This document shows, in pieces, positions 17,259 through 23,999 of a stretch of 29,875 nucleotides of DNA. Numbering within the stretch: position 1 is the first letter of the stretch; each line of letters starts with the position of its first letter. Source of the DNA: Candidatus Aenigmatarchaeota archaeon (GTDB taxonomy: Archaea; Aenigmatarchaeota; Aenigmatarchaeia; CG10238-14); contig JAWBZR010000006.1 in assembly GCA_044343545.1 (NCBI GenBank), forward strand, positions 1-29,875, given 5' to 3'. The notes beneath the pieces were generated by a model, which did not search any database, had not been told where the DNA came from, and saw only the letters and a list, made by a program, of their open reading frames with translations. Both the position numbers and the translations under genes were made by a program.

Positions 17259-17301
17259 TAATTTTATATTGCTGTTTTAATAATTTAAAGATTAGATTTT
17301 G

Positions 17302-17604
17302 ATGAGAAAAGGATATAGGTATGAGTATTTAGCAAAAAGAAAATTGATAGAAAAATATGGAAAACAAAACGTGATAAAATTAGCTATAGGTCAATCTGCC
17401 GACTTTATTATTTTAGCACCAAAACAAAATAAAATAGAAAAAATAGTTGAAGTTAAGGGGACTTGCAAAGAAAAGTTTTACTTGAAACCAAGAGAAAAAA
17501 CTCAATTTCGAAATATACATGAGCTTGCGAGGGAGCATGATATACCGGTTGAGGTTTGGATAAAAACGCGTGGCAAGGAGTTTGATGTAAGGGTGATGGA
17601 ATGA
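17302..17604 (+). CDS. Hjc-like PD-(D/E)XK nuclease (Holliday junction resolvase-like)
   Basis: RKGYRYE, ADFIIL, IVEVK; about 100 aa. Confidence 0.65.
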   Translation: MRKGYRYEYLAKRKLIEKYGKQNVIKLAIGQSADFIILAPKQNKIEKIVEVKGTCKEKFYLKPREKTQFRNIHELAREHDIPVEVWIKTRGKEFDVRVME

Positions 17605-18281
17605 AAATTTTAGTTGTTGGTGATAATCATAATGATTTGGAAAACATGATTAGTTTCTTAGAAAAATTGAAAGAATTTGATTTCGATGTGATAGCATACG
17701 TTGGTGATTTTAGCGATGTTGGGGTTACGAAAGGTTTTCAGCAGGAGGATGTTGCAAAAATTTTGATAGAAGAGTTGAAAATGCTTAAAAAACCGATTGT
17801 TGCCGTGCCGGGAAATAATGACAATAAAAATGTTATCGAGTTGCTGGAAAAGGAAGGTATAAGTGTGCATGGCAAAGGAAAAATTATTAATGGTGTTGGT
17901 TTTTACGGTTTTGGTGGGGCGAAAACACCTTTCAACACTTTTTATGAGCCTTCTGAAGAAGAAATAAAAAAGGGTTTGGAAAAAAGTTATGTTCAAGTAA
18001 TGAATGTTGAAAAGAAAGTTCAAATAACACACGTACCGCCTATAAATACAAAATTAGATCTAACTCTTACGGGACTTCATGTTGGTTCTGTTGTTGTAAG
18101 AAACTTTATAGAAAAATATTCTCCTACTGTTGCTCTTTGTGGTCACATACATGAAAGTAGGGGTGTTGATTATATAAACAAAACACTATTGTTAAATCCT
18201 GGTAGGTTTGCTGAGGGATATTATGGTATAGTCACTATTAATGAAAAGACAGATGGTTTTGTTTTTAACGTTATAGAATAA
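17601..18281 (+). CDS. Calcineurin-like metallophosphoesterase
   Basis: GDNH, VGD, PGNND, THVPP, GHIHE, NPG. Confidence 0.9.
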   Translation: MKILVVGDNHNDLENMISFLEKLKEFDFDVIAYVGDFSDVGVTKGFQQEDVAKILIEELKMLKKPIVAVPGNNDNKNVIELLEKEGISVHGKGKIINGVGFYGFGGAKTPFNTFYEPSEEEIKKGLEKSYVQVMNVEKKVQITHVPPINTKLDLTLTGLHVGSVVVRNFIEKYSPTVALCGHIHESRGVDYINKTLLLNPGRFAEGYYGIVTINEKTDGFVFNVIE

Positions 18282-18470
18282 CACACCCCTTTGTTGCAAG
18301 TGGAAATATTGAGTTTTATTATAAAAATTAATTCAGATGCAATATATTTATACATATAAATATAACACTGTTATATTTTATATTGTGACATTATGATATT
18401 TTCCACAAGAAACAATGGGGTGGGTTATATATACGTTCCAATAGAAAAAGGTTTATTTCTCAAGGAAACA
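18282..18470. other. Replication origin oriC: inverted ORBs flanking an AT-rich unwinding element
   Basis: Minus-strand ORB TTTCCACTTGCAACAAAGGGGTG (about 18284-18306), plus-strand ORB TTCCACAAGAAACAATGGGGTGGG (18401-18424), mini-ORB-like GTTCCAATAGAAA (18435) and TTTCTCAAGGAAAC (18456); directly upstream of cdc6. Confidence 0.88.
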
Positions 18471-18486
18471 TTTAATATAGATTGTT

Positions 18487-19701
18487 ATGGATACCCAAAA
18501 GACTATAAGAAACATATTCCAGGAATTTATATCAAAACCACCCCAGATTTTTAAGAACAGAGATGCCCTCTCATCAGAGTTTATACCAGAAACGATATTT
18601 CATAGAAACAAGGAAATTAACACGATAGCATCGATTTTAGCGCCTTCTTTGAAAGGAGCCAGGCCTTCAAACATTTTTATTTACGGTTTGACAGGTACGG
18701 GAAAAACTTTAGTGTCTAAGTATATCACCGAAGAATTGGAAAAAATATCCTCTCAAGGAAACTATCCGGTTAAAACATTATACATTAATTGCAAGATGAA
18801 AAAAATTTCTGACACGGAGTACAGGCTTGTAACAGAGCTTACTAGAATGTTGGGCTACAATCTTCCGACAACGGGCATGCCAACGGATTACATTTATCAA
18901 ACTTTTTTCAATGCGTTGGATTCGGAAAGAAGAATTATAATTTTGGTTTTAGACGAAATAGACGCGTTAGTTGAAAAAGTGGGAGACGAATTTCTTTATA
19001 ACTTGACGAGAATAAATCAAGAATTGAAACAAGCAAAGGTTTCTATAATAGGCATAACCAACGATCTTCATTTTATTGAAATTTTAGATCCGAGAGTAAA
19101 AAGCTCTTTGAGAGAAGAAGAAGTTTTATTCATTCCTTATAACGCAACACAATTGTATGACATATTGAAGCAAAGAGCGGACATAGCCTTTTCAGAAGGC
19201 GTTTTGTCAGAGGAAGTTATACCAAAGTGTGCTGCCTTGGCAGCGCAAGAGCATGGAGACGCAAGAAGAGCGTTAGAATTGTTAAGGGTTGCAGGCGAAA
19301 TAGCGGAAAGGTTGGGTGACAGCAAGGTTACGGAAAAACACGTGGATATGGCGCAAGAAAAAATAGATTATGACAGAATAGTAGAATCAACGAAAGTTTT
19401 GCCAAAACAAACTAAAGTCGTCCTTTGGGCGATATTGGAGTTGGCCGAAAAGAAAAGAGATGACATACAAACGGGAGATGTTTACGACATTTATCAGAAA
19501 AAATGCAAGGAAATCGGCTTGTATCCTTTGACTCAAAGAAGAATTTCCGATCTCATTTCAGAGCTTGATATGGCCGGAATAATAAACGCAAAAGTCACTT
19601 CCCTTGGTAGATATGGTAGAACAAGAGTAATATCTTTCAATCTTTCAGAGCCAATAAAACAAAAAATTAAATCCATATTGACTGAAAGCCTAGTGGTTTG
19701 A
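18487..19701 (+). CDS. cdc6: Orc1/Cdc6 replication initiator
   Basis: YGLTGTGKT, LVLDEID, LDPRVKSSL, HGDARRALELLRVAGE, C-terminal wHTH with GRYGRTR. Confidence 0.97.
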   Translation: MDTQKTIRNIFQEFISKPPQIFKNRDALSSEFIPETIFHRNKEINTIASILAPSLKGARPSNIFIYGLTGTGKTLVSKYITEELEKISSQGNYPVKTLYINCKMKKISDTEYRLVTELTRMLGYNLPTTGMPTDYIYQTFFNALDSERRIIILVLDEIDALVEKVGDEFLYNLTRINQELKQAKVSIIGITNDLHFIEILDPRVKSSLREEEVLFIPYNATQLYDILKQRADIAFSEGVLSEEVIPKCAALAAQEHGDARRALELLRVAGEIAERLGDSKVTEKHVDMAQEKIDYDRIVESTKVLPKQTKVVLWAILELAEKKRDDIQTGDVYDIYQKKCKEIGLYPLTQRRISDLISELDMAGIINAKVTSLGRYGRTRVISFNLSEPIKQKIKSILTESLVV

Positions 19702-20645
19702 TGGAAGAGCAAGAAATAATTAAAAAATTCTTGGATTTAGGCGTGCAACTCACGAACGAAGCATTTAGTATGGTAAAAAAAGATCCGGATTTTTTTCTCG
19801 CAGAAATCAAGAAACTCAAACCACGGCCTTTTTTTATAACAAAAGACATTTTGAATAAAATAATAGAAAAAAAAGAAAGGACGGATTTTAGAATTATAAA
19901 AACTATTCAGCTAGGAAAGAAAGCGTTAAGAGTGGAAGATTACGCAAACTTTTATTTGAAAAAATATGAGAAGATAAAGGAAATTTTTGTGCAAGCAGGA
20001 TATAGCGGAATGTCTATCAATAAAATCGGGGAAACCACGAAGGAATTTTGGACCATAGGTGTTGTAAAGGAGAAAAAGAAATCTTCTTTGGTTCTCGAAG
20101 ATCCTACGGGGGAAATAGACATATTTTTCGATGGTATAATGAGACAAAAAATTGATGAATTTTGTAGGGACGATGTTGTTGCGGTGTTTTGCGAAAAAAT
20201 TAAAGACAGGTTTGTTGTCAAAAAGATATCACATCCAGACATACCGTTGAGCAGAGAAGTGAAAAAGACAAAAGACGAGTTGTTCGTAAAGATTGAGCAA
20301 GGCGATGAATGTGTTTTATCACCGAATAAATATATCAGCCCAGCTTTTTTACAACTCGACGACATCGTTTTTTTGTTACTTCCGAGAAAATTCTTCGAAG
20401 CGTTAAAATTTAATATAACCTCTGAGGATATTGCAGGTTTGTTGAAGAAAAGATTTTTGCTACCATCAACTATTGACATCGCAATTGGCGAGATTGAAAG
20501 TTTGGTTTTGACGGAATTGCCCGACATAATAGTGACGGACTTGGAACCATCCCTTTGCAAAAACTATAAAGGGACTACAATTATTTCTGTTTTCGACAAG
20601 AGCTATGAAGTAAATCTTCACACGAGAGAGGTAAAAGAATTATAG
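19701..20645 (+). CDS. Inactivated, internally deleted DNA polymerase D small subunit (DP1) / B-subunit-like protein
   Basis: VEDYANFYLKKYEKI, OB fold LEDPTG...DDVVAV, HPDIP, LLKKRFLLP, LVLTELPDII, NYKG; no SDxH, GNHD or GHxH catalytic motifs. Confidence 0.78.
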   Translation: MEEQEIIKKFLDLGVQLTNEAFSMVKKDPDFFLAEIKKLKPRPFFITKDILNKIIEKKERTDFRIIKTIQLGKKALRVEDYANFYLKKYEKIKEIFVQAGYSGMSINKIGETTKEFWTIGVVKEKKKSSLVLEDPTGEIDIFFDGIMRQKIDEFCRDDVVAVFCEKIKDRFVVKKISHPDIPLSREVKKTKDELFVKIEQGDECVLSPNKYISPAFLQLDDIVFLLLPRKFFEALKFNITSEDIAGLLKKRFLLPSTIDIAIGEIESLVLTELPDIIVTDLEPSLCKNYKGTTIISVFDKSYEVNLHTREVKEL

Positions 20646-20697: not shown

Positions 20698-23409
20698 ATG
20701 CCCATAGAAATGCAAGTGCTGGATGTTGATTATGTAATGTTGAATGATCACCCGACGATAAGAATTTTCGGAAAAACAAGTGATAAAAAATCGATAACGG
20801 CTTTCGTCGAAGATTTTTATCCCTACTTTTATGTGCACGTTGAAGATGGAAAAGACGAGCAATTAATAAAGTATCTCGAGGAAAAACACAAGCAAATGCT
20901 AGTAAAGTTGGAAAAAGTTGAAAAGTTTTTACCGATAGGATATTCTAAGGAGCCAACGAAGCTTTGGAAAATAACAATAAAGAATCCTTCCAACGTGCCT
21001 TTGTTGAGGGATGAATTAAAGGCGAAGAATTTTGTTAAAGACGTTTTCGAAGCAGATATACTGTTTAGAAACAGATTCATGGCAGATAAGGATATTGTGG
21101 GTATGGGTTGGTATGAGGTTGACGGTATCGGTGTCAAGACAAGTATTGTGAAGACTGAAAAGGCGTTAACGCTTAAGAAAATAAAACCTATAGAAAAATA
21201 TGAGAATGCGCATTTGAAATATTTGAGCATCGATATAGAAACCTATTCTGAAGAATTCGGAATGCCAGATTCTTCAAAAGATCCTATAATAATAATAAGT
21301 TTGTTTTTTTACCCTTCTTTTAAAGGTAATAATACTTGCGTTTTGGTGGCGAAAAAAACCAAGAACGGTTTTGGAGACGTGAAGATGTTTAGCACTGAAA
21401 AGGACATGTTAGAGGAGTTCTTGAAAATTGTCGAAGATTTCGATCCGGATATAATATTGGGTTATAACAACACAAATTTCGATCTTCCTTACATAGAAGC
21501 TAGATTAGCGGCAAATAAATTACCGAAAACGTTGGGGAGGTGCAATCAAAAAGGAATTAATTGCACAAAATTGTCTTCAGGGTGCAAAATTACCATTCCT
21601 GGAAGAATAGTGGTGGATGTTTATTCCCTGATAAAGGAGGCGGTGACAAAGTTTGGCATGTATAAAGGTTTGAAAAGATTTAGTTTGGGAGATGTTTCAC
21701 AACTCATTTTGGGTGAAGGAAAGGTGGATGTGGCGCATAGCGAGATAAGTAAATTTTGGAATGATGATGGAGAAAATTTCACGAAGCTTATTAATTACAG
21801 CAGAAAAGACGCAGAGTTGCCTTTTAGAATGCTAATGGAAATGAACATGCTTGATAAATTTTTTGAAATAAGCAAAGTGAGCGGTTTAGTTTTGCAAGAT
21901 GTTTTGGATGGTGGCGAGGCCATGAGAATAGAGCAGCTCTTGTTGAGGGAGTTCAACAGGAGAGGTTTTATAGTACCTAACAAACCTGACAATCAAGAGC
22001 TGAATAAAAGAAACGAAGAAAGGATAAGTTCTGGTCTAAAAGGAGGTTTTGTGCTTTCGCCAGAAGTTGGCTTACATGATAAGGCGGTAGTTTATTTAGA
22101 TTTCAAATCGATGTATCCAAGCATAATGATAGCATTCAATATTTGTCCCACAACTCTTTTAAAGGAAGAAAAAGATGTTGAAAAAATCGTTTCGCCTTTT
22201 GGCACAGCTTTTGTGCATCCGAAAATAAGAAAAGGCGTGGTGCCTGAAATAGTTGAATATTTGATAAAAGCAAGAGACAGAGTAAAAAAAGAAATGAAAA
22301 ACGCAAAAACAGAGCAAGAAAAGAAATATCTCTATGCAAAACAGTATGCCTTTAAAACGGTTGCTAATGCTTTTTACGGTTACACTGGTTATTTGAGAGC
22401 AAGATTGTATGTGTTAGAGATAGCAAATACTATAACTGCCACTGGGAGGGAATTAATAAAGAGGGCAAAACACATAGTCGAGACAAATACACCATACAAG
22501 GTTGTTTATGCTGATACAGACTCTGTGATGGTCAAACTTGATACGGATGATGTTTCGGAGGCTTTCAAAATCGGCAATGAAATAGCAAAAATGATAAACG
22601 AAAGTATTGGTTACGGATTGGAAATGAAGGTTGAAAGCGTGTTTAAAACCATGCTCATATTGAGCAAAAAGAGATATGCAGGTTGGAGTTTTGAAGAAAA
22701 CAACGGTGGTTATACCGACAGCATAGTTACTAAAGGCATAGAAACCGTGAGAAGAGATTGGTGCAATCTCGTTTCCGAGACGCTTCAAGAAACGCTTGAA
22801 ATAATTCTAAAGGAGAAGGATGTTAGGAAGGCTTTGAATATAGTAAAGGAAAAAATAAGCGATATAAAGAAAGGTAAAATGGATATAAACAAGCTTGTGA
22901 TAACAAAAAGCATATCAAAGTCTTTGAAGACATATAAAGGCATACAGCCGCACGTAGAGCTTTTGAAAAAAATGAAGAGGAGAGATCCATCTTCAGCTCC
23001 TGGAGTTGGTGATAGAATAGGCTATGTCATAGTTAAAGGTACTGGTCAAGTTTCCAAAAGAGCGGAAGACCCGGATTATGTGATAAAACACAACATACCT
23101 ATAGATTCTGATTACTATATAGAGAATCAACTTTTACCTCCTTTGGAAAGAGTGTTCGAAGCTTTGTCAATAGGCAAGGCAGAAATTCTTGGTGTAGGCA
23201 AGCAATCAGGTTTGGTAGACATACTAGTCAACGGTAAGCCAGAAAGCGAATATCAAGAATATCTTGAAGAGATAGACGGTTTTGTTTGTGTTTCTTGCGG
23301 TAATGTTTTGCAAAGAGTTCCGATGAGTGGAAGGTGCGATGCATGTCGAGGAGAGCTCGTTTTTTACAAGGGAGACAAGAGATCAAGAATATTCATACCA
23401 GCTTCATAA
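20698..23409 (+). CDS. polB: Family B DNA polymerase, Pol-delta-like, with intact 3'-5' exonuclease and C-terminal DP2-type Zn finger
   Basis: ExoI DIE, ExoII YNNTNFD, ExoIII YSRKD; DFKSMYPS, KTVANAFYG, YADTDS, KKRY, GIETVRRDWC; C-terminal CVSC-x12-CDAC. Confidence 0.96.
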   Translation: MPIEMQVLDVDYVMLNDHPTIRIFGKTSDKKSITAFVEDFYPYFYVHVEDGKDEQLIKYLEEKHKQMLVKLEKVEKFLPIGYSKEPTKLWKITIKNPSNVPLLRDELKAKNFVKDVFEADILFRNRFMADKDIVGMGWYEVDGIGVKTSIVKTEKALTLKKIKPIEKYENAHLKYLSIDIETYSEEFGMPDSSKDPIIIISLFFYPSFKGNNTCVLVAKKTKNGFGDVKMFSTEKDMLEEFLKIVEDFDPDIILGYNNTNFDLPYIEARLAANKLPKTLGRCNQKGINCTKLSSGCKITIPGRIVVDVYSLIKEAVTKFGMYKGLKRFSLGDVSQLILGEGKVDVAHSEISKFWNDDGENFTKLINYSRKDAELPFRMLMEMNMLDKFFEISKVSGLVLQDVLDGGEAMRIEQLLLREFNRRGFIVPNKPDNQELNKRNEERISSGLKGGFVLSPEVGLHDKAVVYLDFKSMYPSIMIAFNICPTTLLKEEKDVEKIVSPFGTAFVHPKIRKGVVPEIVEYLIKARDRVKKEMKNAKTEQEKKYLYAKQYAFKTVANAFYGYTGYLRARLYVLEIANTITATGRELIKRAKHIVETNTPYKVVYADTDSVMVKLDTDDVSEAFKIGNEIAKMINESIGYGLEMKVESVFKTMLILSKKRYAGWSFEENNGGYTDSIVTKGIETVRRDWCNLVSETLQETLEIILKEKDVRKALNIVKEKISDIKKGKMDINKLVITKSISKSLKTYKGIQPHVELLKKMKRRDPSSAPGVGDRIGYVIVKGTGQVSKRAEDPDYVIKHNIPIDSDYYIENQLLPPLERVFEALSIGKAEILGVGKQSGLVDILVNGKPESEYQEYLEEIDGFVCVSCGNVLQRVPMSGRCDACRGELVFYKGDKRSRIFIPAS

Positions 23410-23435
23410 AAGCTTCACGAGACATTCACGCGCTC
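23392..23435 (-). repeat. 11-bp phased (G/A)TGAA box array x4
   Basis: TTCA(T/C) at 23392, 23403, 23414 and 23425, across the convergent polB / LAGLIDADG gene ends. Confidence 0.5.
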
Positions 23436-23999
23436 AAATTCAACGGGGTTCAGTATTTTTTTCACCAACGTTCTTTTTTTCTCATTCTCGAATCCTATCT
23501 TTTCTGCATATATTTGCAAGTTATGCTTTCCGTTAATTTCGAGCACATAACCTTTGCCCATCTTGTAGCAAAGTGCTTTTATTCCTTCCATTTCTAATAA
23601 AACTTTCAAAGACATCAATCCTTCCTTATTTATCGAAGAAAGCCTCAAACACCTTTCCTTCCTTCCCTTTCTTTTTCTCGCTCTTATTAAGCCGGAGAAA
23701 TCAAACACAGCTTTCAGGAACTCCCTTCTGAACTCTTCTGATGAAAATGCACGTGAAGGAACTTTCCATTCACGTCTACCCAAGCTTGCTCCCAGATCTT
23801 CTATCTCTAAAATTATTAACAAACTTTCGTAATGTTTTTTGCCACATCTTTTTCGTGTGTAAATTTTTTTGATCAGGGAGCGGAGTTTTTCTTTCGCTAT
23901 CTTTTTCAACTCTTCATCGGAAATTTCCACCCATATCCTTCTCCCACTCTTGACCCCCTTCATGGCAAGAATGCCGTAAACATAGCCATTTATTTCCAT
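23415..23999 (-). CDS. Stand-alone LAGLIDADG-fold protein, probably catalytically inactive
   Basis: YVYGILAMKG and EFLKAVFDFSG resemble the two LAGLIDADG helices; LSSINKEGL..LKVLL..GI and YAEKIGF..EKK are typical of DOD/WhiA-like domains. Confidence 0.7.
   Translation of the reverse strand: MEINGYVYGILAMKGVKSGRRIWVEISDEELKKIAKEKLRSLIKKIYTRKRCGKKHYESLLIILEIEDLGASLGRREWKVPSRAFSSEEFRREFLKAVFDFSGLIRARKRKGRKERCLRLSSINKEGLMSLKVLLEMEGIKALCYKMGKGYVLEINGKHNLQIYAEKIGFENEKKRTLVKKILNPVEFERVNVS

Follow-up and report, generated by a model that had tools for sequence, protein, structure and literature searches.

The pairing of an inactive DP1, the small subunit of DNA polymerase D (PolD), with a family B DNA polymerase (PolB) has been described for the phylum Aenigmatarchaeota in two studies. 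In the main text of Kazlauskas et al. (Nucleic Acids Research (NAR), 2020; PMC7544198), most Aenigmarchaeota are reported to lack the PolD subunit DP2, their PolBs of group B6 bear a DP2-like zinc-binding C-terminal domain (CTD), and an inactive group of DP1 was found in the same archaea; the inactivation of DP1 was regarded as affordable because the PolB has its own exonuclease. According to the main text of a later study (Nat Ecol Evol 2025; PMC12680538), DP1 is kept in the absence of DP2 in just two archaeal lineages, Aenigmatarchaeota and Baldrarchaeia, the CTD in aenigmarchaeal PolB is a degenerate form of that in DP2, and AlphaFold3 together with yeast two-hybrid assays demonstrated that the DP1 of Aenigmatarchaeota binds the PolB-DP2CTD. 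The interpretation as a dead DP1 paired with a CTD-bearing PolB is already published for the phylum in these main texts. Here, a window of 29,875 nucleotides, the whole stretch of DNA analysed, originates from a Candidatus Aenigmatarchaeota archaeon (contig JAWBZR010000006.1, assembly GCA_044343545.1) with a genome of 651 kb in 22 contigs and a completeness of 90.45 %. It contains an open reading frame (ORF) for a DP1-like protein of 314 amino acids that lies between the genes for an Orc1/Cdc6 replication initiator and a PolB with an appended CTD. This ORF is very probably a maintained, dead descendant of DP1 acting as a non-enzymatic B subunit of the downstream PolB. The three genes are:

18487..19701, forward strand: Orc1/Cdc6 replication initiator, 404 amino acids (NF001625 with 525 bits at a cut-off of 501; Pfam Cdc6_lid and Cdc6_C)
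19701..20645, forward strand: DP1-like, predicted non-catalytic second subunit of a polymerase, 314 amino acids (ORF, NF003118, alignments, structural model)
20698..23409, forward strand: family B DNA polymerase, 903 amino acids, with an appended C-terminal domain (Pfam DNA_pol_B and DNA_pol_B_exo1)

The frame of the DP1-like ORF is uninterrupted from 19698 to 20645 (+), as stated in the original prediction. It codes for 315 amino acids from a TTG and for 314 amino acids from the ATG at 19701, and the relatives of the protein begin at the residue equivalent to this ATG. The stop codon TGA of orc1/cdc6 (19699-19701) overlaps the ATG by 1 nucleotide, an overlap that is conserved in relatives according to the locus coordinates, and 52 nucleotides separate the DP1-like stop from the start of PolB. 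The gene order was compared in 18 fetched loci, a hand-selected, non-random set. An adjacent and co-directional arrangement of cdc6 and the DP1-like gene was present in 16 of them, including two with a rearranged PolB; the DP1-like gene was followed directly by PolB in 15 loci, and all three genes were co-directional in 14. The position behind cdc6 in a replication cluster is shared with the small subunit of canonical PolD, and we take the cdc6-DP1-DP2 order of Pyrococcus to be the ancestral arrangement. The proposed coupling to cdc6 stands as far as the stop/start overlap is concerned, but it is most simply seen as an inherited cdc6-DP1-polymerase gene order rather than as a new link.

The DP1-like protein is composed of the following parts:

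19701..19886, forward strand: N-terminal helical domain, residues 1-62, equivalent to DP1N (DSSP, NF003118, conservation)
20001..20246, forward strand: OB fold at about residues 101-178, followed by the P-D-I-P linker at residues 179-182 (Pfam below threshold, VIA, conservation)
20277..20642, forward strand: half-size remnant of the phosphodiesterase (PDE) domain, residues 193-314 (alignments, predicted local distance difference test (pLDDT) of 89-98)

The first ~195 residues match the N-terminal and OB domains of DP1, and the last ~120 residues are the PDE remnant. NF003118, the NCBIfam equivalog model for DP1, covers residues 1-195 only (E 4.7e-20, 72 bits at a cut-off of 445). Pfam matched only the OB fold, at residues 124-172 and below the cut-off (E 0.0017), and yielded no Metallophos match in the 314-residue protein. 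A phmmer search against the sequences of the PDB gave 0 matches even at E 10, thus the link to DP1 among PDB entries is made by fold comparison only. Four N-terminal helices were assigned by DSSP on the structural model (residues 3-12, 19-25, 29-37 and 48-61). In an alignment of 82 sequences, F10, L11, G14, Q16 and L22 were conserved to at least 90 %, R251, P274, D275 and Y289 were invariant, and N288, K290, G291, T292 and T293 again reached at least 90 %. S105, D134 and P179 show no or almost no variation. The N-terminal domain, the helix of residues 78-100 and the OB domain are among the best-conserved segments; the PDE remnant comes close to the OB domain in conservation, with a majority frequency of 0.68 versus 0.76 in 12 forms of at most 320 amino acids. 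The strings that had been quoted as marks of a retained OB fold, linker and C-terminal scaffold are all present in the translation: PDIP at residues 179-182, LLKKRFLLP at 247-255, LVLTELPDIIVTD at 268-280 and NYKG at 288-291.

For the catalytic motifs, the protein was aligned to a canonical DP1 of 493 amino acids (P0104) and to intermediate forms, and the alignment was repeated with DP1-like ORFs from 38 genomes. The protein is indeed much shorter than usual, with 314 amino acids versus 493-494 in canonical DP1 of the phylum. The protein lacks the block that begins directly behind the strand of motif I in P0104 and ends directly ahead of that of motif IV, and this block carries the D-x-H of motif I, the G-D of motif II and the G-N-H-D of motif III. 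The deletion break lies between C204 and V205, near nucleotide 20312/20313. Motifs IV and V are substituted: the position of the motif IV histidine is occupied by P228, and the G-H-x-H of motif V is replaced by T279/D280-L281-E282, the TDLE of the original prediction. None of the five PDE motifs of active DP1 is present, and the PDE part measures ~122 residues (193-314) against ~272 in P0104. The reduction of the region for motifs I to III was correctly foreseen; a deletion of the catalytic core as a whole applies to the half with motifs I-III, but not to the C-terminal half of the PDE domain, which is retained. The protein presents the domain order of the DP1 and polymerase B-subunit superfamily, with the PDE fold as C-terminal half only, and the motif losses indicate a catalytically dead descendant of DP1. 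The motif III histidine is the residue altered in the proofreading-deficient variant of Pyrococcus abyssi; the title of entry 6hmf names H451, and the chain in 6hms has an alanine where 5ihe has the histidine of motif III.

An AlphaFold2 model was built on the 82-sequence alignment and reached a pLDDT of 94 and a predicted template modelling score (pTM) of 0.81, with the fold of DP1 and the B subunits, in agreement with the structural subunit suggested in the original prediction. The best Foldseek match was P. abyssi DP1 (6hmf_B, E 2.5e-14), ahead of B subunits from eukaryotes. In VIA comparisons, the model aligned to 6hmf_A over 258 residues with a Z of 19.1 and a root-mean-square deviation of 4.2, and to the human B subunits of Pol epsilon, delta and alpha with Z of 14.8-16.3; residues 100-180 aligned to OB domains at a Z of ~10. 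The top matches of both programs span residues 26-314 of the model.

The second component of the proposed complex is the PolB, with the following features:

PolB residues D179-I-E181, N257/F261/D262, Y367/D371, D468, K553/N557/Y560-G561 and D606-T-D608, forward strand: invariant residues (19 orthologues)
23203..23226, forward strand: internal PIP-like box, PolB residues 836-843, Q-x-G-L-x-x-I-L (Q836 invariant, G834 nearly so)
23287..23346, forward strand: C4 zinc finger of the CTD with C864, C867, C880 and C883 (invariant columns, hhalign)

PolB matched Pfam DNA_pol_B with E 7e-119 and DNA_pol_B_exo1 with E 1.8e-39, and the residues of Exo I/II/III and Pol A/B/C are invariant among the 19 orthologues. 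Proofreading by the exonuclease domain of PolB, as suggested in the original prediction, fits these invariant motifs together with the lost motifs of the DP1-like protein. The cysteines of the CTD, likewise invariant in the 19 orthologues, form one C-x2-C...C-x2-C motif; the finger has a conserved R873-x-P875-L loop and is followed by a tail to residue 903 (nucleotides 23347-23406). When the PolB tails were compared by hhalign to the C-termini of DP2 from an aenigmatarchaeal family with near-complete DP2 (f11, see below), a probability of 98.4 % and an E of 7.7e-15 were obtained over 50 columns, and by this profile comparison the finger is homologous to Zn-III of DP2. The CTD presents the trait of the B6-aenigma1 PolBs, a single Cys4 motif nearest to a DP2 zinc finger, here Zn-III. 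The PIP-like box, a predicted PCNA-binding box, is internal and stands where CTD-less archaeal PolBs end, thus the CTD seems to have been appended behind an ancestral terminal PCNA-binding box. The genome encodes two PolBs; the second one (780 amino acids, contig C1) has a terminal PIP box, Q-x-x-L-x-x-W-F, and neither a CTD nor a Cys-rich tail.

The models PF03833 and TIGR00354 gave no match to DP2 in the 22 contigs of the 90.45 % complete genome; in control searches they recovered DP2 in three known PolD-bearing archaea. In a sample of 151 genomes drawn evenly from the phylum, a near-complete DP2 over the model cut-off was present in all seven genomes of family f11. About 78 other genomes had only a match of 30-60 residues to positions ~1013-1045 of the DP2 profile, mostly in frames of ~870-960 amino acids (a few shorter or longer). 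A DP1-like match and a short match of the Zn-III type were both listed for 67 genomes. Among these listed matches, the two shared a contig and lay no more than 7 kb apart in 62 of the 67 genomes, and in 53 the finger was co-directional and downstream of the DP1-like gene within 4.5 kb. One genome of family f2 (G090, contig C64) had a partial DP2 match of 558 bits in a frame of 622 amino acids at a contig end, which may be a contamination or a real relic.

For the interaction, a complex was predicted from the whole DP1-like protein and PolB residues 826-903, both given as alignments. The scores of three runs were 0.73, 0.73 and 0.74, whereas the best of three controls had 0.00; among 157 solved complexes, 116 attain the mark that was passed, as do two of 215 mismatched pairs. 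At least 92 % of the contacts agreed between the runs, with a partner pLDDT of at least 73. Since similar complexes have been solved, the pass expresses likeness to them and is no proof of binding by the copy studied here. Confident contacts in the model involved residues 73-89, 121-137, 156 and 259-260 of the DP1-like protein and residues 873-878, 886-889 and 897-903 of PolB. According to this model, the zinc finger would join the two proteins into a heterodimer, and the R873-x-P875-L loop and the C-terminal tail of PolB would dock on a groove to which the pre-OB segment, the OB fold and one loop of the PDE remnant contribute. Such a docking would resemble the way in which DP1 receives Zn-III of DP2 and in which the B subunits of eukaryotic Pol alpha, delta and epsilon receive the CTDs of these polymerases. 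The sections of PMC6355029 used here place Zn-III of DP2 in the groove between OB and PDE of DP1, in line with the modelled contacts. The N-terminal domain may tether the polymerase to GINS and the CMG helicase, in analogy to DP1N of Thermococcus and Dpb2N of yeast; as reported in the sections consulted of PMC9023282, the partner of DP1N in T. kodakarensis is Gins51C and that of Dpb2N in yeast is Psf1. A GINS gene (Sld5 family; contig C1, 25975-26274) is present in the genome. Proofreading would be left to the exonuclease domain of PolB, and the gene order would be the ancestral cdc6-DP1-DP2 arrangement with the DP2 body replaced by PolB.

The comparison with known systems places the pair nearest to the inactive aenigmarchaeal DP1 with a B6-aenigma1 PolB: both belong to the same phylum, a DP2 was not found and the PDE site is lost. 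With canonical DP1 of P. abyssi (5IHE, 6HMF, 6HMS), the protein has the N-terminal helices, the OB fold, the P-D-I-P linker and the C-terminal PDE half in common, whereas it differs in its length (314 versus ~490-620 amino acids, 493-494 within the phylum), in the loss of motifs I-V and in having no DP2 partner found. The B subunits of eukaryotic Pol alpha, delta and epsilon (5VBN, 4Y97, 6TNY) are also dead homologues of DP1. They are held by the Zn-containing CTD of an exonuclease-bearing family B subunit, whereas the corresponding binding is a modelled one here. A helical N-terminal domain is present in both; in the B subunit of Pol epsilon, it contacts GINS (PMC9023282, same sections). Eukaryotic B subunits have a PDE fold of full size, judged by target lengths of 410-570 residues, whereas ~45 % of it is kept here. 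Unlike the eukaryotic CTDs, the CTD of this PolB consists of one zinc finger and a short tail, without a helical bundle or a second Cys motif.

The distribution and the substitution pattern of the DP1-like gene are those of a maintained gene. A homology search yielded 104 protein clusters with near-full matches of 304-493 amino acids, mostly of 315-370 amino acids and without Pfam domains, and their source names are mostly Aenigmatarchaeota. Four proteins of the family (P0012, P0018, P0067 and P0082) carry the source labels WOR-3, Planctomycetota, Omnitrophica or Asgard and probably stem from mis-binned contigs. In the phylum sample, 127 of the 151 genomes had a DP1-like match, and among the matches listed the frames contained no internal stops, save a weak secondary match in one genome (G023) with three stops. 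All four genomes of the genus keep a DP1-like form of 315-316 amino acids at identities of only 42-61 %; the genus-level amino acid identity as a whole is 42-72 %. Between this genome (G000) and its closest relative (G006), the identity was 92 % for cdc6, 80 % for PolB, 73 % for the metallophosphoesterase gene upstream of cdc6 and 60-61 % for the DP1-like protein. By NG86, the DP1-like gene had non-synonymous rates (dN) of 0.19-0.52 in all five genus pairs and synonymous rates (dS) of 0.9-2.75 in the four pairs for which dS was computable, with dN below dS in each of these four. The ratio omega was 0.11-0.44 for the DP1-like gene, 0.03-0.07 for cdc6 and 0.04-0.07 for PolB; these values are rough and indicative only, because dS has reached saturation (0.9-3.2) and could not be computed for the pair of G000 and G010. 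They indicate a gene under constraint, less so than its neighbours.

The DP1-like ORFs of the phylum differ in how much of the PDE domain is left. Genomes without a DP2 body supplied 37 DP1-like ORFs; the motif III histidine was missing in all of them, the D-x-H of motif I was kept in 11, and motifs I, II, IV and V together were kept in nine. In the ORFs keeping motif I (L014-L017, L020, L021, L025, L030, L052-L054), G-E-x-D or G-N-M-D replaces G-N-H-D. Paired with a PolB, the products of such motif-keeping ORFs might retain metal binding, or their activity might have changed. The lengths form a series from ~383-403 amino acids with all strands, over 327-361 amino acids with the motif III unit lost, to 291-317 amino acids with the block of motifs I-III lost. 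Forms of at most 320 amino acids fell into two or more clades with separate support, and one of these is this genus, nested among members of its family with 327-361 amino acids. The tree left out L010 (267 amino acids, ORF cut by a contig end), and its columns took in the trait region wherever at least 30 % of the rows were filled; as the root is a midpoint root only, the statement of at least two origins depends on the starred branches, and a rooted reconstruction does not underlie it. The PolB CTD has no helical bundle. In PolD this bundle contacts loops of the PDE domain, according to the interface sections of PMC6355029, so both sides of the secondary interface seem to have been reduced in parallel. 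We regard it as an evenly balanced proposal that this genus is the end point of a stepwise erosion of the PDE domain, with one half excised, the OB/PDE groove kept and about the smallest second subunit among those examined. The chances are equally divided for the order proposed, in which the motif III histidine was lost first, then the metal ligands, then the strand-helix units of the first half, the lengths falling from ~384 over 361 to 315 amino acids. The main texts of PMC7544198 and PMC12680538 do not mention a deletion of half of the PDE domain; it is possibly depicted in Supplementary Figure S15 of PMC7544198.

Several observations weigh against a role as B subunit of the downstream PolB. 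The absence of DP2 is unproven, because the genome is 90.45 % complete and in 22 contigs. The CTD of this PolB stayed above E 0.001 against the DP2 model TIGR00354, which leaves the profile-profile comparison as the sole basis for the homology of this particular CTD. The pass of the complex prediction may originate from the model's memory of solved complexes of DP1 with DP2 and of B subunits with CTDs. The PDE remnant contributes only residues 259-260 to the confident interface, and with two residues its retention is not explained by the contact to the CTD alone. Finally, the non-synonymous rate of the DP1-like gene is 2-5 times that of cdc6 and PolB, and one genus pair has an omega of 0.44, at a saturated dS (>0.9, one pair incomputable).

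Among other explanations, a main role independent of PolB survives best, yet it is unlikely: the protein would be a factor for initiation or CMG assembly together with Orc1/Cdc6 or GINS, or an OB-fold binder of single-stranded DNA. This would account for the translational coupling to cdc6 by the 1-nucleotide overlap. The neighbourhood to cdc6 in 16 of the 18 loci, two of them with PolB rearranged, the N-terminal domain and OB fold as the most conserved parts, and the binding of GINS by DP1N in Thermococcus (PMC9023282, same sections) also point in this direction. However, the gene is linked just as closely to the CTD-bearing PolB, with the 62 of 67 genomes among the matches listed, the Zn-III-like finger is conserved, the complex model passes its controls, and binding in the yeast two-hybrid system is reported for the phylum in the main text of PMC12680538. 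Moreover, such a role is compatible with that of a B subunit and does not exclude it.

Still less credit is due to a DP1-like protein that is still an enzyme, either with a new active site or as one part of a split DP1 that is complemented in trans by a neighbouring gene:

17601-18281, forward strand: stand-alone metallophosphoesterase, 226 amino acids, with all motifs (Metallophos domain)

This protein with its complete motifs is encoded two genes upstream, and it keeps its place by the cdc6/DP1-like/PolB block in 11 of the 18 fetched loci; the nine ORFs with motifs I, II, IV and V are a further point in favour of an enzyme. However, the metallophosphoesterase belongs to the YfcE/MJ0936/aq_1956 type rather than to that of DP1, its best PDB matches are 2yvt and MJ0936, and BLASTP aligned only 43 residues around motif V to canonical DP1. 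The idea of a split DP1 was rejected because the metallophosphoesterase is a complete YfcE/MJ0936-like domain and not the missing half. In the DP1-like protein itself all five motifs are gone, and not one of the 37 ORFs has the motif III histidine.

A decaying pseudogene left by the loss of PolD, open by chance and functionless, would fit the loss of all catalytic motifs and of half of the PDE fold and the fastest evolution within the four-gene block (60-61 % identity against 92 % for cdc6 and 80 % for PolB), but it is hardly credible and was rejected in view of open frames of similar length in 127 of 151 genomes, the 315-316 amino acids kept in all four genomes of the genus despite their divergence, dN below dS in every computable pair, the confident fold with a pLDDT of 94, the residues of the remnant that are invariant across 82 sequences and the conserved overlap with cdc6; the original prediction of a maintained subunit instead of a pseudogene is borne out by the same data.

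The cdc6 gene is preceded by a candidate for the replication origin:

18278..18428, no strand: candidate oriC, a 29-nucleotide inverted repeat with an AT-rich spacer of 93 nucleotides (inverted-repeat search)

The arms of the repeat (18278-18306 and 18400-18428) are 83 % complementary and lie directly upstream of orc1/cdc6, which gives the order candidate oriC, orc1/cdc6, DP1-like gene and PolB-CTD for this locus. Both arms have the appearance of origin recognition boxes (ORB), with a G/C string and a GTGGAAA core. By its resemblance to a pair of such boxes, the inverted repeat is a candidate oriC, a reading based on the general architecture of archaeal replication origins. Comparable inverted pairs upstream of cdc6 were found in two of five relatives (L044, L045) and not in L038-L040. 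An exact-string search upstream of cdc6 in 16 relatives detected the core heptamer in G006 and G103 only and the paired ORB-like pattern in none of the 16.

Two further ORFs flank the genes described. A free-standing ORF of 194 amino acids on the reverse strand (23415-23999) converges on the 3' end of PolB and matched LAGLIDADG_3 (E 1.7e-07); it is possibly homing-endonuclease-like. The 3' end of an ORF of 101 amino acids on the forward strand (17299-17604) overlaps the start of the metallophosphoesterase gene, and this ORF had weak, sub-threshold matches to nucleases of the PDDEXK/VRR-NUC/Hjc type (E 0.01-0.06).

The central idea of a dead DP1 serving a PolB is published; the locus adds a confirmation and detail on the reduction series, and the loss of half of the PDE fold is moderately new. 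As the non-enzymatic B subunit of the downstream PolB, the DP1-like protein would be part of a clean and compact example of the eukaryote-like arrangement of a PolB with a dead B subunit. It suggests how far a B subunit can be pared down, to ~45 % of the PDE domain and zero catalytic residues, and its small size makes it convenient for tests of the B-subunit surfaces that are really needed, those for docking of the CTD and those for tethering to GINS. If the proposed stepwise erosion is true, the pair would present a minimal interface of a B subunit with a CTD, and the DP1-like proteins of the phylum would be a living series for the loss of activity in eukaryotic B subunits.

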